Shown here piece by piece: positions 4,150 to 28,219 of a DNA stretch of 64,000 nt. A program made the translations under genes and the position numbers. Under the pieces are notes generated by a model that made no database searches, was not told the origin of the DNA, and was given only the letters and a program-made list of their open reading frames with translations. Position 1 is the stretch's first letter. The number at the start of each line of letters is the position of its first letter. This DNA is from Gemmataceae bacterium (GTDB taxonomy: Bacteria > Planctomycetota > Planctomycetia > Gemmatales > Gemmataceae): contig DATANR010000134.1 of the NCBI GenBank assembly GCA_036266155.1, positions 21,526-85,525 on the forward strand. Direction: 5' to 3'.

Positions 4150-4698
4150 CTATTCGCGTGGAAAAACCTTGTGCCCCAGAGTTTTACCCGACTCACGATC
4201 GACGAATTCCACGTATCGCCCCGCACTCTCCTTGCTCAGCACTTTGATCGCCACGTCGTCGACTTCCAGCGTGACCAGGTTGAAGTACTTGGTGTGTTCG
4301 ATCGGCCCGAGACCCTTGAGGTTGGCCTTCCACAGCTGCTTTCCGGTGCCGAAGTCAAGCGCGACCAGCGTGCAGCCGCTCGACATGCGATGGTAGTCGG
4401 CGTAGAAGAGCGTGGTACCGTGAACGACGAACGACGTGTTCTTCTGCGCGTCAAACGTGATCGTCTTGTCGGCCGCGTTCGTGACGGCCACTGTGATCCG
4501 CCCGACGTCATTGGCCCGAATGTCCGTCTTCAACGCGCAGCGCTGAACGGAGAAATCGAGCGTCGCCCGCTCGTCAGCCCAGTCCCAGACGGCTTCATTG
4601 GCCTTCTTCTGATACTCGGCCGACTTGTCCTTCGGCGACGGGGCAGCGACGGCGACTGCGGCAACCATCAAAATCAAGCCAGCAACTTGTCGGCACAT
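4150..4698 (-). CDS. secreted hypothetical protein
   Basis: 182 aa. ATG confirmed (cat 4696-4698). Signal peptide MCRQVAGLILMVAAVAVAAPSP. One PQQ-like blade motif, ALDFGTGKQLWKANL. No family recognised. Confidence 0.6.
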   Translation of the reverse strand: MCRQVAGLILMVAAVAVAAPSPKDKSAEYQKKANEAVWDWADERATLDFSVQRCALKTDIRANDVGRITVAVTNAADKTITFDAQKNTSFVVHGTTLFYADYHRMSSGCTLVALDFGTGKQLWKANLKGLGPIEHTKYFNLVTLEVDDVAIKVLSKESAGRYVEFVDRESGKTLGHKVFPRE

Positions 4699-4737
4699 GA
4701 GGCGTTCCTTGGCGGCCTTGATATTCGACCATTCGTT

Positions 4738-5052
4738 TTACTGCGGCTTTCGCTTCTGCCCGTTCACCCAGAGTTGGTTATCGTCGTCGAGCAGGACCAT
4801 ATCGCCGGCCGCGATCTCGCCACAGTCCTTGCCATTCGCAAAGACATGGCCATCGCGGATGTCGACGCGCCGGGCGTCCGCACCTTCGCCGACCGCTTCC
4901 CACGCACCATCGGCGGACAAGTTACTCTTCGACGTCACGTTGCCGTGGCGAATTTCACACGCGACCTTGCCCGGCTCCTTCGTACAGCCGGTCATTACGA
5001 TCAGTAATCCCAGCATCAACGGCAGCAAACGAATCATCATGAGATTCTCCAT
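4738..5052 (-). CDS. small lipoprotein, hypothetical
   Basis: 104 aa. Lipobox LLIVMTG-C after a hydrophobic N-terminus. Overlaps the 3' end of the upstream CDS by 98 nt. Confidence 0.5.
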   Translation of the reverse strand: MENLMMIRLLPLMLGLLIVMTGCTKEPGKVACEIRHGNVTSKSNLSADGAWEAVGEGADARRVDIRDGHVFANGKDCGEIAAGDMVLLDDDNQLWVNGQKRKPQ

Positions 5053-18998: not shown

Positions 18999-19036
18999 CG
19001 GTTGAAACGAAGTCGGTTTTGCAGAAGAGCCCCAGG

Positions 19037-19777
19037 CTAAAAGGAAACGCGTTTCGGCTCGCCGACGGTCGGCAGCTCATCCAATTGGCGCATGCGAAAG
19101 ACTTCGAGAAATCGAGGCGTCGTGCGATAGAGCGTCTCGCCGGTTTCCCCCGGCGCACTGGCGATCAGACCAAGCCGTGCCAGTTGCCGCAGCACGCCCC
19201 CCGAGTCGACGCCGCGTGTCCCGTCGACTTCCTCCTTCGTCGTCGGCTGGCGGTACGCGATCAGCGCCAGCACGTCGAGCGCGGGTTGATTGAGCCGAGC
19301 TTCACGCGGTCCTCCGACGAGGCGCTCGCGGACGGCCGCATACTTCCGGCTCACCCGCAGCACATATCCCGTGGGTCCATGAACGACCGCATAGGGCCGA
19401 TTCTGCGCGCGATAGACGCGATTCAGGGCGTCGATGCATTCGCGGAATTGTTCCGGCCCCAGACCGCGGATCGCATCGGCAGCGTCTTCGGCTGTGAGCG
19501 GCGGCCCGCCGACGAACAAGAGCGCTTCGAGAATCTGGATCGGCCCCGGCGGCACCGTCGGCTCGTTCACCGCCTCCGCCAAGGGCGGCGTCTTGGGCGA
19601 GCCGGGAGCGTTAGCGACCGGTGTCTCCGGCTCAGGCAAAGCACCGGTCACTGACGCTCCCGGCTCACCCGCGGACACGTCGAGTTCCCAGTCGCTCGCG
19701 CCGACGAGCGTGGCATAGCTCTCGCCGAGCCGTCGGGCGGCCGCCAGGTCGTCGGCTTCCGGTGCCGGTTCGTTCAT
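19037..19777 (-). CDS. scpB: segregation and condensation protein B
   Basis: 246 aa. LEALLFVGGPPLTAEDAADAI and ALDVLALIAYRQPTTKEEVDGTRGVDSGGVLRQLARLGLI are typical ScpB winged-helix motifs. ATGA overlap with the upstream gene. Confidence 0.85.
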   Translation of the reverse strand: MNEPAPEADDLAAARRLGESYATLVGASDWELDVSAGEPGASVTGALPEPETPVANAPGSPKTPPLAEAVNEPTVPPGPIQILEALLFVGGPPLTAEDAADAIRGLGPEQFRECIDALNRVYRAQNRPYAVVHGPTGYVLRVSRKYAAVRERLVGGPREARLNQPALDVLALIAYRQPTTKEEVDGTRGVDSGGVLRQLARLGLIASAPGETGETLYRTTPRFLEVFRMRQLDELPTVGEPKRVSF

Positions 19778-20184
19778 GACGCGTCAAATGAATGGGGGAG
19801 GAAGAATACGCCGGTCACCACCGTGCCGATCCAGAGGACGGAGAACACGATCGCGAGCGCGATGTGGGCGGTCTTGTATCGCCGCGTGCCTGTGTACAAC
19901 ATGGCCGGCAACATCAGCGCGGCCGGCACCGAAAAGCAGAGGTGGATGTTCAACGCTTCACGTTGTTCCGGGCTAAAGCTGGCGGTCAGGTTCGGCTGCA
20001 CGAAGCGGATGATGACTTCGAAGCCGATGACGGTCAAGATCGTCAACGCAAAGAAGACCCTGTTGATGCGCCCATGCCAGCGCGGCGAACCGGCCGCCAG
20101 CGCGATCAGCGAGGCGATCAGCAAGAGGGTGACCGCGCTCACCGCGATTTTTAACGACAAGATGACCAACGCTGGTGCAAGCAT
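19774..20184 (-). CDS. small 4-TM membrane protein (possibly DUF420-like)
   Basis: 136 aa from MLAPALVILSL (cat 20182-20184). Four hydrophobic segments. The family assignment is weak. Confidence 0.55.
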   Translation of the reverse strand: MLAPALVILSLKIAVSAVTLLLIASLIALAAGSPRWHGRINRVFFALTILTVIGFEVIIRFVQPNLTASFSPEQREALNIHLCFSVPAALMLPAMLYTGTRRYKTAHIALAIVFSVLWIGTVVTGVFFLPHSFDAS

Positions 20185-20291
20185 CAAGCCTCCGGTCTCA
20201 CCGATGTAACCAACCGACCTTCGCGTTTTACTCGCCGGCCCACCCGTGTACAATCGGGCGCAGCCATGTTGTCTGTCGCGAGGAAACGCCA

Positions 20292-21209
20292 ATGTGTCCG
20301 GCCCCGCTGTTTTTGATCGCTGCTCTCGTCGCCGCCCCGGCGCCGGCGAAGCCGCGCGACCCGTGGGTCGGCGTCGTCGTTTGCCTCAAATCGAGCAGCC
20401 CGGAGACCTATCAGCCTACAAAGGACGGTGAACTCGAATTGCAGGCGTTCCGCTTCCGTTACCTCGACGTGCGCTGCACCGACGAGAAGGGCGACTTCGT
20501 TGCCGTCCAATGCGACGATCAGGTGGTGTGGGTCAAGAAAGAATCCGTGCTGCGGCCACGCGACGCGATCAACCACTACACGGCCGTGCTCGACAAGGAC
20601 CCGACCGACGAGCGCGCCATCTCCTGCCGGGCCTGGGCGTACATGGCCGTTCATGAACTCGACCGGGCGTTGAAGGATGCCGAGGAAGCCGTGCGTCTCA
20701 ATCCCGAAAGCACGGCGTGGAAGAACAACCGCGGCGAATGCTTCATCAAGCGCAAGGAATACGACAAGGCGATCGCCGAGTTCAGCGATCTTCTAACGAC
20801 GAACCCGCGTTACTTTTTCCCGCTGTACAACCGGGCTGAAGCTTATCTGCGCAGCCGGCAATTCGCCAAGGCCAAAGCCGATCTCGACACGGCACTCGCG
20901 ACCGAGCCACGCGTCCCCGGCCTGCACATGTACCTCGCCCGCGTCTACGCCACGGCTCCCGACGCCCGCTTGCGCGATGGCAAGAAAGCGGTCGAATCAG
21001 CGAAGAAGGCCGTCGACATGATCAAGTACCGCGACGGCCGCTACCTCGACACCCTCGCCGCCGCCTACGCCGAAGCCGGCGATTTCGACAAAGCGGTGGA
21101 GACGCAACAGAAAGCCCTCGACGATCCGGACTTTATGAAGGAAGAAAGTGAAGGTGCTCGCCACCGGCTGACGCTTTATCGCGACAAGAAGCCGTTTCGG
21201 GATGAGTAG
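20292..21209 (+). CDS. secreted TPR-repeat protein
   Basis: 305 aa from MCPAPLFLIAALVAAPAPA (ATG 20292). TPR units AISCRAWAYMAVHELDRALKDAEEAVRLNP, NRGECFIKRKEYDKAIAEFSDLL and LAAAYAEAGDFDKAVETQQKAL. Confidence 0.8.
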   Translation: MCPAPLFLIAALVAAPAPAKPRDPWVGVVVCLKSSSPETYQPTKDGELELQAFRFRYLDVRCTDEKGDFVAVQCDDQVVWVKKESVLRPRDAINHYTAVLDKDPTDERAISCRAWAYMAVHELDRALKDAEEAVRLNPESTAWKNNRGECFIKRKEYDKAIAEFSDLLTTNPRYFFPLYNRAEAYLRSRQFAKAKADLDTALATEPRVPGLHMYLARVYATAPDARLRDGKKAVESAKKAVDMIKYRDGRYLDTLAAAYAEAGDFDKAVETQQKALDDPDFMKEESEGARHRLTLYRDKKPFRDE

Positions 21210-21292
21210 ACGGTCGCCGTATGTCCGGCCAAGGGCTCCGCTTGATTGACGGAACAATTCATTTCACGCCGCGGCAACGCGTTGCATTTCAG

Positions 21293-21350
21293 AGAGCGCC
21301 AATCAAAGAGCGCCACGAAGAGCGCCAGGGGTGCATGGGGTTGGCGCTCT
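21293..21350. promoter_or_regulatory. iteron-like cluster: AGAGCGCCA x3 direct + x1 inverted
   Basis: agagcgcca at 21293-21301, 21307-21315 and 21319-21327. Reverse complement tggcgctct at 21342-21350. The cluster lies ~125-180 nt upstream of the RepA-like ATPase gene. Confidence 0.4.
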
Positions 21351-21473
21351 TTGCTTGCGTTTGCGCGCACATCCCAATACGTGGTTGTTAGATGGAGCGA
21401 TTTCGCGGACCAAAAAAGTGGTACCAGGAACCCTCCCAAAAAGTGGTAAACACATCCTCCCGGAGCCCGCATC

Positions 21474-22532
21474 ATGTCACACCCTCTACCCGTTCCAATG
21501 ACCGACGTCCGGACCGGATCTCTCGCCTGGCTCTGGCCCGGCTACATCCCAAAAGGGAAGCTGACGATCCTTGATGGCGACCCCAATCTCGGCAAATCCT
21601 TGACCACGCTCGATCTGGCCGCGCGCTGGTCGCGTGGCCAGACCTTCCCCGACGGCGCCGGCGCCGGAACCATCGGGCGCACGTTGATCATCCAAGTCGA
21701 AGACGGAACCGCGGATACCGTGCTCCCGCGCTTGCAGGCCGCGGGAGCCGATCTCGCCAATGTGTTCGTCCTCCCCGATGAGAGCGCCCGCGTCTTTCGT
21801 TTGCCGTGGAACACACCGTGGCTCGAACAAGCGATCCGCGAGTCAAACGCGTCACTCGTCGTCATTGATCCATTTCTATCCTTCCTCTCCCGGCGCGTGT
21901 GGGCCACCAGCGACCAGTCGGTGCGCCGTGTCCTGGGCAAACTGGCCGAAGTTGCCAAGCAAACGGGGGCCGCCATTATGTTGATCCGGCACCTGAACAA
22001 GACCGAAGGCCAAAAGGCGCTCTACCGCGGCGGCGGCTCGATCGGCATCGTCGGCGTCGCCCGCTCGGCCCTGCTGGCGGCCGCCCACCCGTCGGGCGAT
22101 GGCCGCGTCGTTTTGACAACCACCAAGGCCAACCTCGGCCCGCCGCCGCCCGCGCTGACCTACCGAATCGTCGGCAACGAGTCGGGAATCGCCACAATCG
22201 CCTGGGAAGGCCCCGTCGATCTGACGGCCGACGAGGCGCTCAACCCGCCGCCGACAGAAGACGACAAATTACTCATGAATGTGATCCTGGCGACCGAATG
22301 GCTGATGGCCGAACTGCGCGCCGGCCCGTGCCCCGCCAAGGAAATCGCCCGCGCCGCCGAGTCGGCCGGCATCCCGGAACGCACGCTCGACCGCGCCAAG
22401 AAATCGGCCCACGTCATCTCGACGCTGGAAGTGAATCGCAAAACCAACGAACGCCGTTGGATCTGGAAGCTGAACCGCGACTACTACGAGCCGCTGGAGG
22501 ATTTGCCGCGGGCGCCGGATGTGTTTTGGTGA
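21474..22532 (+). CDS. RepA/AAA_25-like RecA-fold ATPase with C-terminal HTH-like domain (mobile-element type)
   Basis: 352 aa. LAWLWPGYIPKGKLTILDGDPNLGKSLTTLDLA (Walker A). LVVIDPFLSFL (Walker B-like). AIMLIRHLNK. This pattern is typical of phage, plasmid or ICE replicative-ATPase loaders. The tail PAKEIARAAESAGIPERTLDRAKK looks like an HTH. Confidence 0.7.
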   Translation: MSHPLPVPMTDVRTGSLAWLWPGYIPKGKLTILDGDPNLGKSLTTLDLAARWSRGQTFPDGAGAGTIGRTLIIQVEDGTADTVLPRLQAAGADLANVFVLPDESARVFRLPWNTPWLEQAIRESNASLVVIDPFLSFLSRRVWATSDQSVRRVLGKLAEVAKQTGAAIMLIRHLNKTEGQKALYRGGGSIGIVGVARSALLAAAHPSGDGRVVLTTTKANLGPPPPALTYRIVGNESGIATIAWEGPVDLTADEALNPPPTEDDKLLMNVILATEWLMAELRAGPCPAKEIARAAESAGIPERTLDRAKKSAHVISTLEVNRKTNERRWIWKLNRDYYEPLEDLPRAPDVFW

Positions 22533-22603
22533 GGGGGACGTTTCGGTTCCGAGCCGCGTCGATCACAATTGACAGAGCTTCCGAAATCGATGGAGTGGCC
22601 GAC

Positions 22604-22915
22604 ATGAGCGCCGCGATCGACACGGCTACATTTGAAGTCCATCTTCCGCTGCCGCCAGCGCAGACGAAAGGCGAGCGGGAACGGTCGGCCTTCTTGCGCT
22701 TGCTACCGGAGTTGCTGGCCACGCATCCGGGAAAGTTCGTTGCGATCCACAACGAGCAAGTTGTCGATAACGATCAGAATGACATCGCACTGGTTCAACG
22801 CGTTCATAAGCGAGTCGGATATGTTCCGATTCATGTTGCTAGGGTGGCAGGGCAGCCGGCCGTTGAGCGAATTTCTGGGCCGCGTGAGATTGACCATCCG
22901 AGAAACTATGTATGA
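22604..22915 (+). CDS. small DUF5678-like protein (antitoxin-like fold?)
   Basis: 103 aa from MSAAIDTATF (ATG 22604), the C-terminal part of track ORF 21899-22915. HPGKFVAIHNEQVVDNDQNDIALVQRV resembles the GKWVAI..VV motif I recall for DUF5678. Confidence 0.45.
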   Translation: MSAAIDTATFEVHLPLPPAQTKGERERSAFLRLLPELLATHPGKFVAIHNEQVVDNDQNDIALVQRVHKRVGYVPIHVARVAGQPAVERISGPREIDHPRNYV

Positions 22916-23033
22916 TCAGCTATCGGTATGCGACCGGGCTGACACCACCCGCTGTACTCGTGATCGCGACAATCTTTCTTTGGGTGACCGCCAAACGACC
23001 CGGAATATTGACTCATAGAAAGAACTGTTTCGT
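22912..23033 (+). pseudogene. possible 5' gene fragment truncated at the low-GC island junction
   Basis: ATGA-coupled to the DUF5678-like gene. MISYRYATGLTPPAVLVIATI resembles the N-termini of small retropepsin-like proteins that I recall as partners of such genes. The reading frame then runs into the antisense of the DUF4435 gene and loses protein-like character. Confidence 0.2.
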
Positions 23034-23975
23034 TCATGACGACGAGGGAACCGGAATGGCCGCTATGAATTCGCGCAGACATTGTGGCGTGTCCGCATAT
23101 TGGCAGAGTTCGGATATGAAATTTGTTTCTGATACTTTCAGCGGCACGTGGCGAGATGTCAAGAGGAGTGTCGGTGATTTCAGGTTCGCGTCTTCGCAGA
23201 GCTTTGAGAGGAACAATCGAAAGAAATAGGCTTGAAACTTACCTCTGTACCGAGTCATCCGATCTTGTGGCGGTATCATTAGTATTGCTTCTTGTGCCTC
23301 TGTGTCGGTAAATGTCTGCGTAGAATTCGTACTCCTCTCAATTGCGGCAATTGTGTAGGTGGCAGTTGAAGTCTGCAAGCCAATTTGAACGATCTTGTTT
23401 AGATTGATTGAGTTCAGATTAGCACTCGTCGCGCCAGGATGGGCTTTTTCGTAGCGCCTCTGGAGCATGACCCATCCGTTCAGTAACGCAGTACAATCGA
23501 GAAAGGCGCTAGCGCTTTGCGTGAAGGCTGCCAGGCATCGTTCGAACGAATCATCCCCTTCGGCGTGTTCGCTCAGGTGAAACTCATAACGCAATATGCG
23601 ACGGAAGGCTTGTTCGGAAACATATAGATTTTCCACGGAATACGTCGGCGTGATATACACTATTACATCGGAAGGCAACTCAGAAGGATGGTCGAAATCG
23701 CGATCTATAAAGTACAATGTATAGGCTAACTTATGTTGGTCGTGGCTTGCAATCAGGCGGAATAGTTTCAGGACGTTATCCTTTCCGCCACTATTTATCC
23801 CCTCCCATGCCAACTCGGGCCGGAGCATCTCTATACGATGTGCGTAATATTTTGTGTCAAACCCCTCAAAGAAAATCACATACGCGTTTGGCCGTCTGCT
23901 CCTTATGCGCAAAAAGTCTCGTAGTTTTACGGCGTAGCTGTCGCGGCTACCGCGCAGGCTCTCTACTCGGCTCAT
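23034..23975 (-). CDS. DUF4435/Toprim (OLD-type) nuclease-like protein, AriB-like
   Basis: 313 aa. Motifs VIFFEGFDTKYY, NSGGKDNVLKL, YFIDRDFD and TPTYSVENLY match the DUF4435 Toprim pattern. AGGA lies 8 nt upstream of the ATG (cat 23973-23975). Only 2 nt separate it from the upstream stop. Confidence 0.85.
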   Translation of the reverse strand: MSRVESLRGSRDSYAVKLRDFLRIRSRRPNAYVIFFEGFDTKYYAHRIEMLRPELAWEGINSGGKDNVLKLFRLIASHDQHKLAYTLYFIDRDFDHPSELPSDVIVYITPTYSVENLYVSEQAFRRILRYEFHLSEHAEGDDSFERCLAAFTQSASAFLDCTALLNGWVMLQRRYEKAHPGATSANLNSINLNKIVQIGLQTSTATYTIAAIERSTNSTQTFTDTEAQEAILMIPPQDRMTRYRGKFQAYFFRLFLSKLCEDANLKSPTLLLTSRHVPLKVSETNFISELCQYADTPQCLREFIAAIPVPSSS

Positions 23976-23977
23976 GC

Positions 23978-25339
23978 CTATTTCCTTTGCACAAACCTAG
24001 TTAAATCATGTGCCTTACCGTCTAATGCATTTTCGAAGACGAACGGAGAGTGCGTTGTGGCTAGGAGGAATGAGCACTTGCCGGAATCCATAATGTCAGG
24101 GAGCAGCATCTTCTGCCACTCGATCGATAACGAGAGTTCTGGCTCGTCAAACAAGACGGCAAGCTTTGCACCATTTTCGAGGTACACCCTTGAAAACAGT
24201 GACACTATTTGCTTCTCTCCTGACGATAACTTGGCCAACTCGACAGGCTTCTCGTTGGATTTGTGTACTACCCGGAGATCGACAGTGCTTTCGTTGTAAA
24301 CTACTTGCTTGTCTGTGAGATACTTGTTGCAGACGCGAGTGAACTCCTTGATTGCTGCGTCGGATTCTTTCTGCTGATCGTAGACATTGATTAGGTTAGC
24401 GAGGAAATACACAAGAGTTTCATATTGCAGTTGTGCAATGTCACCTGACTCGACAAGCTGCATAATTCTATTCTTCCGTTCAGCGCTGATATTATTACCA
24501 ACTCGATCGAGCACGATCTTGAGAGCGCTCTTGTCCTGAATTCTTTTCAGTTCATCTACGACGGTAATCCCGTCCACAAGTTGTGACAACATTTGCCCGC
24601 TGATGCGCGAGTACCATTCGACTGACGATTTTTCGATCCTGCCCGTGATGTCTCTGATCCGTTGCGTAACATCGCTCATTCCAAATCGGATTAGACCTTC
24701 GCCACGAAAGCCTTCTTTCCTGGTGTAGCCGAGATCTTCCAGCTCCTCTTCAATACGACGGTATGTTGGGAAGTAGAGATTCGTAAAAGGGAACGCCTCC
24801 GATAAATGCCTCCGCACGTTTTCATTCTCGAAAAGACTCGGAGAGTCGCCGGTTGGGCCGTGTATCATCTCGGAACGTAAAACGTCAAGAATGTACGCTG
24901 GCGGAAGTCCCGCTGTCTCCGCCATGTGAATTAACATTGGGTGGTGGCGGACATCGGGATGTCGAAGCCCGCGCGTCTCTTCGCTCAACCGGTAAAGATC
25001 CTCCTCTGGCACCTTGTGGAGTAGTCGTCGAAGCCGAGGTTCAAGCTTCGCCGACATGAGCCCTACCTCTGCCATTTCTGCTGAAATCGTGATAACTCTG
25101 CCGTTTGCGGTTTCGACGGTAATAGACTCAAAGTTATGTTTCCTGAGCTTGTACAGTTGCCGAGAGAGGACGGCGTAAATCATGCTAAGGATTGTTGTCT
25201 TGCCGGAGCCGTTGTCGGCGATTAAAACCATCACCGGCTCGTCGAACCGTATGTCCACGTCGCGGTCACCAAACAGACCCTTGATCTGAAACCGCTTGAT
25301 CGGTGACGCTAGTGACATTGGTCCAGATTGATCCGCCAT
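23978..25339 (-). CDS. ABC/SMC-type ATPase with long helical insertion, AriA-like
   Basis: 453 aa from MADQSGPMSLASPIKRFQIKGLFG (cat 25337-25339, GAGGAG 9 nt upstream; the track start at 25363 is a TTG). Walker A LIADNGSGKTT, ABC signature LSSGEKQ, Walker B LAVLFDEPELSLS, H-loop LLATTHSP. Confidence 0.85.
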   Translation of the reverse strand: MADQSGPMSLASPIKRFQIKGLFGDRDVDIRFDEPVMVLIADNGSGKTTILSMIYAVLSRQLYKLRKHNFESITVETANGRVITISAEMAEVGLMSAKLEPRLRRLLHKVPEEDLYRLSEETRGLRHPDVRHHPMLIHMAETAGLPPAYILDVLRSEMIHGPTGDSPSLFENENVRRHLSEAFPFTNLYFPTYRRIEEELEDLGYTRKEGFRGEGLIRFGMSDVTQRIRDITGRIEKSSVEWYSRISGQMLSQLVDGITVVDELKRIQDKSALKIVLDRVGNNISAERKNRIMQLVESGDIAQLQYETLVYFLANLINVYDQQKESDAAIKEFTRVCNKYLTDKQVVYNESTVDLRVVHKSNEKPVELAKLSSGEKQIVSLFSRVYLENGAKLAVLFDEPELSLSIEWQKMLLPDIMDSGKCSFLLATTHSPFVFENALDGKAHDLTRFVQRK

Positions 25340-25680
25340 CAGCGTTCGCTCCTCGGGCGACAACCGCAGTCATCCTTCACCGTGGTTCTGATCACGACAG
25401 CATTACTGAAGGGCGCTGCACTTCTTAGAGCAGCTGTGTTCCCACCGGCTCGCCTTATCCAGCTCGATACAACCGTCTGAGCAGAGTTTACCGTCGGCAA
25501 CACGCGTAGGCTACTACGACTCGAAATCAAGAAAATAAAATCGCGACCTCTGGATGGAAAAATAGAGCATTCGAGGCCTTCGCCGACCCAATGGATCCCC
25601 TGCGGCAAGCGACCCGTGCTAGGTGTTACGCCGCCAGGCAAGCTTCATTTGCGAACTGCGTCCGCCTGGGCTGCCCGACC

Positions 25681-26595
25681 TCACACCCCCTTGATCGCCG
25701 TCCCCTGGATTTCGACGTTCGACAGTTCCAGGCTCTTGATCGTCCAGTACAGCATGAAGACGAGGACGCCGGCGAGTTCGACCAAGAGGACGGTGGAGCG
25801 CAGGCCGTACCAGTACAGCCCGACGGCGAGCACGGGGACGAGGCCCATCAGGGTGCCGGTCAACAGATAAAGGCTGCTATACACTTTCTGACGCGTTGGG
25901 TCGGTCTTGAACAATTCCTTGAGCGTGTCGTCGGCGTGGAACCAACAGACGCACGCGATGCCGAAGAAGAAGGTGAGCGCGCCGGCATAGTGCAACCAGC
26001 CTCGCAGCGTTTGCGGCAATGAGTTCTTCAGGTCGGCGTCGATCGCGTGCAGACCTTGTGCGATGGCTTTGGCCTTATCCGCTTTCTCTTGAATGCCATC
26101 CTGTAATTGCTGGGTGTCCGCTTTCAGTTGTGCCGTTTTCGCGTCGTTATTGGAAGCAATGTCTGATTCAACGATGATCTGTGCTCGCTCATTGCTCTGT
26201 TGCAGCGCGAGTGTCACGTCGTCGGCGACGACGGCGGGCTGGTTCCATTCCATCGGGCAGAGGGCCACGACAAGCAAGCCGATCGCGGCAATGTTGAGGA
26301 CCCAGCTCTCTTTCCACGTGAATCCCTTGTAGGCGAACAGCATCATGGCGACGGAGACGAACGTGGCGACGAACAGGTCGCGGATCGGGATATGCCCGAG
26401 GAGCTTCTCCTGGCTGTGGTAATACGCGGAAATGGAATTTCGCTGAATCCCGTCGCCTTTCGTGAAATGATACGCGAGCAGCGACACCAAAAAGATGATT
26501 GCGACAGCGACGAGCAGGTGCCGCAGGCTCTTGTAAGTCGCCACCATCGACAGGACGAGTTTCTCGACGGCCGGATCGGTCTTCTGGACGTGCAT
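25681..26595 (-). CDS. multi-pass membrane protein with ~90-aa coiled-coil loop, hypothetical
   Basis: 304 aa. About 6 TM segments. ISAYYHS motif. Central Q/A/D/K-rich loop (QQSNERAQIIVESDIASNNDAKTAQLKADTQQLQDGIQEKADKAKAIAQG) encoded by a lower-GC stretch. Confidence 0.7.
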   Translation of the reverse strand: MHVQKTDPAVEKLVLSMVATYKSLRHLLVAVAIIFLVSLLAYHFTKGDGIQRNSISAYYHSQEKLLGHIPIRDLFVATFVSVAMMLFAYKGFTWKESWVLNIAAIGLLVVALCPMEWNQPAVVADDVTLALQQSNERAQIIVESDIASNNDAKTAQLKADTQQLQDGIQEKADKAKAIAQGLHAIDADLKNSLPQTLRGWLHYAGALTFFFGIACVCWFHADDTLKELFKTDPTRQKVYSSLYLLTGTLMGLVPVLAVGLYWYGLRSTVLLVELAGVLVFMLYWTIKSLELSNVEIQGTAIKGV

Positions 26596-26787
26596 GGGGC
26601 ACCGTGGGGAAGAGTGAGCGGGGTACCGAAGGACAGGCTATTCGGCCGGTCGGTCGCGCACAATGCAAAAGTGAAATAGGATGTCAATAGTGGCCCTCTC
26701 GCTCCGCGAGAGGATTGCATGGCTCGCCGCGGTGAGGACCACACGCTGTCAGCCCGAGTCTTGCATTCTTCTCGCGGAGCGAGAAGG

Positions 26788-27423
26788 CTACGATTGCTTC
26801 GTCTTCTTGATCGGCCCCTGGCGTTTGGGTCCGCGAACAATTGCCTCGCTGGCGTTTGCCCCTTCGAACAACGTCTGAAGCTTCGCCAGCGCTGCTGTCC
26901 AGTACGCTTTGAAGCGCCCGACGGCCGCGAGGTCCTTGAGCTTGTTGTGCTCCAGGGCAACCTGGCTTTTCGCGGGGCCCTTGTTCCAGAAATTGACTTC
27001 AACGCTCGTCTCGCCATCGATCCAGGTGATGCGCATCGACTTGTTCGCGGTGGCCCGGCGAACCGTCATCTTGGCGCCGTCCGGCAACCACTGGGCCAGC
27101 TTCTTGGGTTCGCTCCAGCTCGCGTACAGGTCCGCGATCGGCACGGCGATGGTTTTCGACGCGCTGGCCGAGAATTCGCCGTCGCACTTTTGATGCTTGA
27201 CGCGGAGGCCCTTCACCTGCTCGTAGCCGACGGTGACCATCTGGCTCCACCAGCCGGGACAACCGTGTTGCTCGCTTAGGTGCGTGGCGATTTCCTTGTG
27301 CGTCCACGCGGCCGCGCCGTCCGTGTCGAGCACGGCGATCCACTCGGACCATGTCTTGCCGGTTTTAGCCTGCACGGCTTCGGAACTGATGCCGGCGGCT
27401 TCGGTCACTTTGGGTTTGGGCAT
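26788..27423 (-). CDS. DUF4287-like N-domain + SRPBCC/AHSA1-like domain protein
   Basis: 211 aa. KTGKTWSEWIAVLD..HKEIATHLSEQHG, followed by a START/AHSA1-like beta-rich part. Confidence 0.6.
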   Translation of the reverse strand: MPKPKVTEAAGISSEAVQAKTGKTWSEWIAVLDTDGAAAWTHKEIATHLSEQHGCPGWWSQMVTVGYEQVKGLRVKHQKCDGEFSASASKTIAVPIADLYASWSEPKKLAQWLPDGAKMTVRRATANKSMRITWIDGETSVEVNFWNKGPAKSQVALEHNKLKDLAAVGRFKAYWTAALAKLQTLFEGANASEAIVRGPKRQGPIKKTKQS

Positions 27424-27490
27424 TGGTGCAGTCTCCCTTTGCGGCGTCGCCCTCGCGTTGCTCTTCGGGTTCTGTCGTTACGAGCGTGCG

Positions 27491-28219
27491 TCAACCCAGT
27501 GGCCACGCGGAATCCAGGGCGGCCTGTTGGATGCGCGTCACTTCCTGGATGCCCGCGGTGCCGACGCTGATCAGGCGCATCAGTTGATCGGCCGAGAAGG
27601 TCGCCTCTTCGCCGGCGCCCTGGACTTCGATGAAGCGGCCAGAGCCAGTCATCACCAAGTTCATATCGACGTCGGCATCGCGGTCTTCGACGTATTCGAG
27701 GTCGAGCCGTTCCTCGCCGTCAATGATGCCGACGCTGATGGCGGCCACGCTGTCGGTCACCACGTTGGCCGGCGGACCAATGACGGCGGCGTGCTTGTTC
27801 AAGGCCATGCACAGGGCGACGAACGCGCCATTGATGGCGGCAGTCCGCGTGCCGCCGTCGGCTTCAAGCACGTCGCAGTCCAGCCACAGCGTGCGCTCGC
27901 CGAGTTTGGTGAGATCGACCACCGCCCGCAGGCTGCGGCCGATGAGCCGTTGAATCTCGACCGAGCGCCCGTCGACCTTGCCCACCTTGTCGCGAGCTTT
28001 GCGTGAACCCGTCGAGCCGGGGAGCATCGCATACTCGGCTGTCATCCAGCCTTTGCCCGTCCCCACGAGAAACGGCGGCACCGCCGGCTCGACGCTGCAC
28101 GTGCACAGCACGGTGGTCGCCCCCGAGCGCACAAGTACGCTGCCGGCCGCGGTGCGGGTGAAGCCCAGCTCAAAGGAGAGTGGGCGAAGCTGATTCGGCA
28201 GACGGTTGTTGGGACGCAT
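27491..28219 (-). CDS. rph: ribonuclease PH
   Basis: 242 aa from MRPNNRLPNQLRP (cat 28217-28219). GSVLVRSGATTVLCT, EYAMLPGSTGSRKAR and DGRSVEIQRLIGRSLR are classic RNase PH motifs. The track's N-extension (FRVFRG) translates the upstream hairpin. Confidence 0.9.
   Translation of the reverse strand: MRPNNRLPNQLRPLSFELGFTRTAAGSVLVRSGATTVLCTCSVEPAVPPFLVGTGKGWMTAEYAMLPGSTGSRKARDKVGKVDGRSVEIQRLIGRSLRAVVDLTKLGERTLWLDCDVLEADGGTRTAAINGAFVALCMALNKHAAVIGPPANVVTDSVAAISVGIIDGEERLDLEYVEDRDADVDMNLVMTGSGRFIEVQGAGEEATFSADQLMRLISVGTAGIQEVTRIQQAALDSAWPLG

Follow-up and report, generated by a model that had tools for sequence, protein, structure and literature searches.

An intact, horizontally acquired PARIS gene pair in the genome of a planctomycete of the family Gemmataceae

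A stretch of 64 kb from a contig of a Gemmataceae metagenome-assembled genome (the whole stretch is called the window here, and all coordinates are window positions) contains two adjacent genes, which encode an ATP-binding cassette (ABC) ATPase and a protein with a DUF4435 domain. The pair is a bona fide and intact member of the PARIS family of anti-phage systems, consisting of the ATPase AriA and the putative Toprim nuclease AriB, and it was acquired horizontally by this planctomycete. The cassette and the region in front of it comprise the following features:

23978..25318, minus strand: ariA, ABC-type (AAA_15/AAA_21) sensor ATPase, 446 amino acids (aa) from the ATG at 25318
23034..23975, minus strand: ariB, DUF4435 Toprim nuclease effector (predicted), 313 aa
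25319..25680, minus strand: non-coding leader/promoter region upstream of ariA, within which the foreign DNA passes into native DNA on the high-coordinate side

A scan for open reading frames (ORFs) found both genes intact and free of internal stop codons. The stop codon of ariA (TAG, 23978-23980) and the start codon of ariB (ATG, 23973-23975) are separated by 2 nt, exactly as described in an earlier reading of this DNA that was made from its letters alone, referred to as the sequence-only reading. The maximal ORF of ariA (23978..25363, minus strand) starts with TTG at 25363 and encodes 461 aa. The ATG at 25339, which is preceded by GAGGAG 9 nt upstream and was chosen in the sequence-only reading, gives 453 aa, and the ATG at 25318 gives 446 aa; the latter is the call of JGI (P0035) and agrees with the N-termini of the homologs. 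The impression that the ATPase is shorter than AriA of Escherichia coli did not hold, as the 446-461 aa found here compare with 464 aa of the solved AriA from strain B185. The motifs quoted earlier were all recovered in the two translations, namely DNGSGKTT, LSSGEKQ, LAVLFDEPELSLS and TTHSP in the ATPase, and FFEGFDTKYY, SGGKDNV, FIDRDFD and YSVENLY in the DUF4435 protein.

The MacSyFinder rule for PARIS (Rousset et al., 2022, PMC9122126) asks for both genes, with at least 32 bits for AAA_15 or at least 27 bits for AAA_21 in the one and at least 27 bits for DUF4435 in the other. The Gemmataceae pair falls under this rule with two genes on the same strand, 2 nt apart: the ATPase matches AAA_15 in its N-terminal part (53.3 bits, 4.3e-14) and AAA_21 in its C-terminal part (46.2 bits, 8.5e-12), and the second protein matches DUF4435 with 117.2 bits (1.3e-33) over residues 32-266, so that the lack of a significant DUF4435 match, named in the sequence-only reading as speaking against its own proposal, is not the case. 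The protein is already deposited in databases under the DUF4435 name. The PADLOC comparison proposed in the same reading gave AriA (PDLC04164, 6.7e-35) as the best defence model for the ATPase, with PtuA as runner-up (3.7e-17), and AriB (PDLC02983, 5.1e-31) as the best defence model for its partner, for which no other family competes.

The residues and the fold of the ATPase were compared with those of known AriA proteins. In the numbering of the 446-aa form the Walker A motif is GSGK40TT, the signature spans S365-Q370, Walker B comprises D391-E392 and the H-loop contains H423. Among 39 AriA homologs the residues N36, G37, G39, K40, T41 and T42 as well as S365-Q370, D391-S398 and T422-P425 are invariant. 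The AlphaFold2 model of AriA has a predicted local distance difference test (pLDDT) score of 81 and is mostly helical at residues ~94-330, which bears out the helical insertion of about 300 aa that had been placed between Walker A and the signature. In a Foldseek search the first 14 matches were all AriA chains (E 1e-14 to 1e-12, template modeling (TM) score up to 0.66), followed by a second tier of retron/Septu PtuA structures at 5e-10. By sequence, AriA matches chain 8ux9_B of the PDB at E 6e-10 in the C-terminal lobe only, with GSGK on GAGK39 and DE on DE393. In E. coli AriA, trigger binding or ATPase activity is lost when K39 or E393 is mutated (PMC11464382). The least conserved stretch among the 39 homologs comprises residues ~85-180, and the trigger-sensing pores of AriA have been described as variable (Burman et al., 2024, PMC11464382). 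As the variable stretch corresponds to these pores, the trigger of the Gemmataceae pair probably differs from that of E. coli and is not predictable.

For AriB, a Toprim two-metal site is predicted to consist of E37, D40, D91, D93 and E115, possibly together with D95, accompanied by the basic residues K65 and R244. In 33 AriB homologs E37, G38, K65, D91, E115, N116, R244, G245 and K246 are invariant, and D40, D93 and D95 are near-invariant, D40 and D93 being conserved in at least 90%. The AlphaFold2 model (pLDDT 93.4) places E37 at the end of strand 32-36 and D91 at the end of strand 86-90. Foldseek ranked two AriB chains first, 8v46_D and 8ux9_A (probability 1.0, TM-score 0.53-0.55, 13-14% identity), which stem from the two cryo-EM studies of PARIS, and the next are Toprim regions of OLD nucleases (6njw) at E 0.03. 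Neither the AriB sequence (phmmer) nor the profile of its clade matched a solved structure, so that the structures were reached via the fold search, the PARIS of a Pseudoalteromonas plasmid and PARIS-1. Residues 5-298 of the B185 AriB were rebuilt from its alignment with the Pseudoalteromonas plasmid homolog, and the resulting numbering fits the published positions E26, R28, D30, K60, K64, D88, E90, E122, F137 and R236. The hhalign comparison of both AriB proteins is weak (E 0.0034) and pairs D91 with D88, D93 with E90 and E115 with E122. The equivalences E37/E26, D40/D30, K65/K64 and R244/R236 were assigned by motif and secondary-structure position; since no significant pairwise alignment covers the first two, we infer them from motif and position. 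In E. coli AriB, K64 and R236 contact the tRNA (PMC12409363). No relative of AriB was found in the phage collection. Pfam, PADLOC, fold comparison and residue conservation thus agree that an ABC ATPase of the AriA type is paired here with a DUF4435 Toprim protein of the AriB type, which is the definition of PARIS given in the sequence-only reading.

Several other systems also combine an ABC ATPase with a nuclease, and the pair might belong to one of them (Gabija or OLD classes 1-2, Septu/retron PtuAB, AbiL, MADS3-4), or its ATPase might be a housekeeping RecF, RecN or SbcC. Such an assignment could refer to the weaker matches of the ATPase to PtuA, to mad3 (6e-13) and to the N-termini of SMC_N and RecF, and to the second place of PtuA in the fold search, but the AriA models score far higher. 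The NCBIfam models for PtuA (48.4 bits against a cut-off of 500), recF (19.1 against 172) and Rad50 (15.9 against 700) match the ATPase at the P-loop only, and since these scores are far below the cut-offs, Septu and the housekeeping ATPases, the latter named in the sequence-only reading as one way in which it could fail, are removed as alternatives. The PtuA of Septu and retrons is likewise an AAA_15/AAA_21 ABC ATPase that carries a long helical insertion, but its partner is the HNH nuclease PtuB. OLD classes 1-2, i.e., P2 Old and GajA of Gabija, likewise combine an ABC ATPase with a Toprim nuclease, and their Toprim regions come next after the AriB chains in the fold search; however, they carry the ATPase fused to Toprim_OLD in one polypeptide, whereas the Gemmataceae domains lie on separate genes. 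A Pfam search of the partner gave no match to Toprim_OLD, HNH, RloB or DUF4276, and OLD structures match AriB at E 0.03 or above. We therefore regard these alternatives as very improbable and as largely refuted.

Within the PARIS family two E. coli systems serve for comparison. PARIS-1 of E. coli O42, which resides on a P4-like satellite (PMC9122126), has the identical gene order, and its sequences were taken from the supplement of Rousset et al. (PMC9122126), where 399 residues of AriA are available. Over these 399 residues the window AriA aligns end-to-end with 29% identity (E 3e-31; hhalign 99.9%, 1e-32), including the motifs PTYRR, FG.DV and CNKYL. The PARIS-1 AriB aligns with the profile of the window AriB over 241 columns (hhalign 98.5%, 1.9e-15), and both have FEG, GGK/GAGK, D.D, EN and RGK in common. 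PARIS-1 differs in that the identity is only 23-29%, in the divergent helical insertion and AriB C-terminus, and in its location on an enterobacterial satellite instead of a planctomycete chromosome. It is validated in phage defence, and the likeness to it carries no biochemically characterised trigger or target. PARIS-2 of E. coli B185 (8ux9, 8v45-8v49; Burman et al., 2024, PMC11464382; Belukhina et al., 2025, PMC12409363) contains the same Pfam families in proteins of similar length (464 and about 305-316 aa, compared with 446-461 and 313 aa here) and ranks first in the structural comparison of both proteins. Its ATPase residues K39 and E393, its Toprim residues E26, D30, D88, E90 and E122 as well as R236 and K64 have equivalents in the Gemmataceae pair. 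However, R28 and R31 of the B185 AriB, which contact AriA, are F39 and K42 in the Gemmataceae AriB and thus not conserved as such, and neither the sensing of Ocr nor the specificity for tRNA-Lys/Thr/Asn can be assumed for the Gemmataceae pair. As the pair matches PARIS-1 end-to-end and is far from B185, its sequences place it in a PARIS-1-like lineage. The description as a divergent member is therefore appropriate relative to B185 (13-17% identity), but not relative to PARIS-1 and to the large clade around it.

The cassette also stands out by its composition. Its GC content is 0.494 overall and 0.447-0.537 across windows of 300 nt, compared with 0.56-0.69 in the flanks and a mean of 0.614 in the 64 kb; it is the lowest-GC stretch of 2.3 kb in the window (z = -4.3), the next lowest elsewhere having 0.576. 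At third codon positions (GC3) ariB has 0.53 and ariA 0.58, compared with 0.72-0.83 in the neighbouring genes, and the region 25319..25680 upstream of ariA is intermediate (GC 0.569). The contrast seen in the sequence-only reading is hence real, but not its values of 42-43% against 65-78%. A jump as sharp as this, in a metagenome-assembled genome, might also arise from an assembly or binning artefact, by which a foreign low-GC cassette was misjoined to a Gemmataceae contig. However, a separate Logan assembly joins ariA and ariB, in identical sequence, to the neighbouring orf103 and to a part of the high-GC AAA_25 gene, the JGI contig (111 kb) and the NCBI TPA contig (119 kb) both carry the cassette, and the junction holds the recognisable remnant of a gene typical for the lineage (see below). 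A chimeric assembly is therefore unlikely, to a degree that makes it extremely improbable.

The locus was then compared with other genomes, using the RNase PH gene (rph, 27491-28219) as anchor, which gave 80 loci in a search of 185k species genomes. The block argD-argF-rph is collinear in ~25 loci of Gemmataceae and other Planctomycetia, and collinearity stops at rph in every relative, including the closest ones (RNase PH 90% and 85% identical). None of the 80 anchored loci holds a homolog of AriA or AriB, which refutes that the cassette is conserved in all relatives, a further outcome that the sequence-only reading had listed against itself. A precise empty site could not be drawn from these loci, as the anchored relatives are too distant, and only the absence of the cassette is established. 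Nothing from the region ~19000-27490, with genes for DUF4287, a membrane protein, PARIS, orf103, AAA_25, TPR, DUF420 and ScpB, is found in synteny downstream of rph in any of the 80 loci, and rph looks like the boundary of a rearrangement or of a variable region.

The following features adjoin the cassette:

22604..22915, plus strand: orf103, small DUF5678-like gene (weak, 0.0048), 103 aa, convergent with ariB
22912..22974, plus strand: remnant of a retropepsin-like aspartyl-protease gene, first 21 codons, MISYRYATGLTPPAVLVIATI
21210-22532, plus strand: stand-alone AAA_25 protein, 352 aa, resembling the C-terminal ATPase domain of phage/plasmid primase-helicases (phrog_10729, 1e-13)
25681-26595, minus strand: predicted membrane protein, 304 aa, directly upstream of the cassette, with a native GC3 of 0.80

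The gene orf103 (GC3 0.59) has relatives in 17 metagenomic loci and is a neighbour rather than a component of PARIS, being unlinked to the cassette in four other contigs (L003-L006, in our numbering of homologous loci). In at least eight other contigs the gene behind an orf103 homolog is retropepsin-like (~110-133 aa; Pfam gag-asp_proteas, 7.8e-8), and in six of them it begins with MIRYRY..PPAPFVNV or a near variant and has a start/stop overlap of 4 nt. The window keeps this overlap of 4 nt and 21 codons of the protease, and the similarity ends ~60 nt before the ariB stop codon. Of 2020 six-frame pieces of the window, the single best match to the protease profile is 22912-22974 (positions 1-21 of the hidden Markov model, E 0.029 window-wide), and a search beyond the cassette and through the rest of the window recovered no further part of the gene. 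As the protease is cut to 21 codons and the rest is missing, the arriving DNA replaced most of this gene, and the border of the acquired stretch on the low-coordinate side is located between about 22955 and 23033. The high-coordinate junction falls somewhere in 25364-25680, and the DNA similarity to the closest homologous cassette spans only 25310 to 23185, with no flanks in common. That the cassette reached the chromosome horizontally is supported by its foreign base composition, by the related loci that lack it and by the protease gene cut short at one of its borders. Of the proposed recent import, the part that stands is the composition, which is not ameliorated; no empty site by which to date the event was found in a close relative.

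As a side observation, the conserved two-gene module of an orf103-like and a retropepsin-like gene (~125 aa) is found, e.g., at 4325-5010 of locus L009 and in L090, L092, L093, L097 and L101, and it may be a toxin-antitoxin-like pair. Upstream of AAA_25 lie a tandem repeat of two copies of CCAAAAAGTGGTA (21410-21448) and an inverted repeat of 16 nt (21300-21357). On the other side of the cassette, the predicted membrane protein gave only a sub-threshold match to DUF6773 and has no homolog in related loci. Between its gene and a DUF4287/AHSA1-like gene an imperfect inverted repeat of 42 nt (26685-26796, 83% complementary, spacer of 28 nt) is located, possibly serving as a terminator or as a hairpin with a regulatory role.

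The clade to which the pair belongs is large. A word-indexed search returned more than 5000 relatives of the ATPase at E <= 1e-3, many of which are 40-45% identical (Serratia, Vibrio, Pseudoalteromonas, Pseudomonas, Cystobacter), and the AriB profile matched 2382 clusters at 50% identity, 1022 of them at E <= 1e-30. The order of the ATPase gene followed by the DUF4435 gene, adjacent or overlapping, is kept in unrelated contigs and plasmids. Compared with the nearest cassette, dN, the rate of non-synonymous substitution, is 0.17-0.27 and the synonymous rate dS is saturated; a dN/dS ratio is not computable due to this saturation, and a low dN with saturated dS together with intact ORFs fits purifying selection. 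Among plasmid-borne AriB proteins the closest one (35% identity) belongs to the cassette at 1681-3942 of L105, from the Pseudoalteromonas xiamenensis plasmid NZ_CP072134.1, where it follows an AriA annotated as two separate coding sequences, next to a transposase, which looks like a decaying PARIS copy. In L004 and L005 (6663-8000) the AriA homolog is called as 234 aa, yet the tblastn similarity covers the full gene, so that a frameshift or a difference in gene calling may be responsible; in L006 (5792-7129) it is intact with 445 aa. In the literature and supplements that were searched, nothing readable on PARIS in Planctomycetota was found, the breakdown by phylum being given as an image.

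In other high-GC hosts (L003, L004, L006) homologous cassettes are likewise below the GC content of their flanks, with 0.46 compared with 0.64 in L004, and 0.57 compared with 0.63, and this PARIS clade therefore seems to circulate from a pool of lower GC content. Such foreignness in further hosts would also fit a toxin-antitoxin-like addiction module, in which AriB as toxin and AriA as antitoxin mainly stabilise their mobile DNA instead of defending against phages. The depositors of the PDB entries call AriA an "antitoxin", and the cassette adjoins the primase-helicase-like AAA_25 gene and the small toxin-antitoxin-like module. However, the integrase, att repeats and tRNA of a live element are all absent here: tRNA and Rfam scans of the window were empty, no integrase is located nearby, and att-like direct repeats were found only as short matches at chance level. 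As the AAA_25 gene has a native GC3 (0.80), any element to which it belonged is old or degraded, and no obvious element is left to be stabilised. Moreover, addiction and abortive infection are compatible with each other in PARIS. An addiction module without a main role in phage defence appears distinctly improbable.

In E. coli PARIS, a hexamer of AriA holds three AriB subunits inactive, AriB is freed once a phage protein has bound to AriA in an ATP-dependent step, and the AriB dimer nicks the anticodon stem of tRNA via its two-metal Toprim site (Burman et al., 2024, PMC11464382; Belukhina et al., 2025, PMC12409363). Taking the gene structure, the family, the fold, the conservation of the catalytic residues, the foreign base composition, the lack of the cassette at related loci and the one junction as they were found, we read the Gemmataceae cassette as a two-gene PARIS system, i.e., a class 4 OLD-family anti-phage system, which was acquired horizontally and would work by an E. 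coli-like mechanism, and we give this reading a probability of about 80%. By analogy we infer the complex of AriA and AriB, the trigger, the RNA target, the expression and the protection of the host. The AriA scaffold would bind and silence the Toprim nuclease AriB until a phage protein binds, in an ATP-dependent manner, to the poorly conserved helical insertion of AriA and frees AriB. The freed AriB would then dimerise and cut host tRNA with the predicted site of E37, D40, D91, D93 and E115, which would stop translation and abort the infection. The cassette itself arrived by horizontal transfer beside the mobile-element-like AAA_25 gene, thereby destroying the retropepsin-like gene.

Several points weigh against this reading. 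To our knowledge no phage of this host is known. The TM-scores of both proteins are moderate (0.54-0.66). The only biochemically characterised system, PARIS-2 of B185, is 13-17% identical, and AriB reaches it weakly by sequence, and neither the tRNA target nor the trigger is derivable from sequence. PARIS-1, the closer relative, was active from an inducible promoter only (PMC9122126). Furthermore, no minus-strand consensus promoter was found upstream of ariA in a scan for sigma-70 promoters, which does not cover those of planctomycetes. The promoter and terminator scan gave nothing exceeding the shuffled expectation, the leader RNA of ariA folds no better than shuffled sequences (z = +0.81), and an ORF of 100 aa inside 25319..25680 has no family match. 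The lack of a recognisable sigma-70 promoter would suit a silent or decaying relic, which was acquired and then lost its expression or function, and decayed copies do occur in other DNA, one example being L105, where AriA is split and a transposase lies next to it. Against a relic, both ORFs of the Gemmataceae pair are stop-free and of full length compared with the homologs, the catalytic residues are all preserved, dN stays far under the saturated dS, and the promoter scan does not extend to planctomycete promoters. We therefore consider a relic to be distinctly improbable and prefer the reading as an E. coli-like PARIS system.

PARIS is a widespread family with known structures and a known mechanism, and its prevalence is estimated at 5% of prokaryotic genomes. 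The Gemmataceae pair is an ordinary member of it that DefenseFinder and PADLOC would call automatically, and as standard tools suffice and structures, mechanism and prevalence are known, it opens no new question on the family as such. The remaining novelty is the specificity within the PARIS-1-like clade and the host phylum. With AriB proteins that are 13-14% identical to the characterised enzyme, this clade could have a trigger unrelated to DNA mimics of the Ocr type and other substrates, either other tRNAs or RNA other than tRNA, which we regard as rather improbable; if true, the planctomycete member would be a handle on the conflict between phages and hosts in a phylum for which hardly any phages are known. 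The locus adds a well-supported PARIS system in the Gemmataceae, where defence systems got little experimental attention, and it shows a compact two-gene unit that travels as such and stays low in GC content inside high-GC hosts. Its practical use is that of a divergent PARIS-1-like representative for comparing trigger and tRNA specificity.

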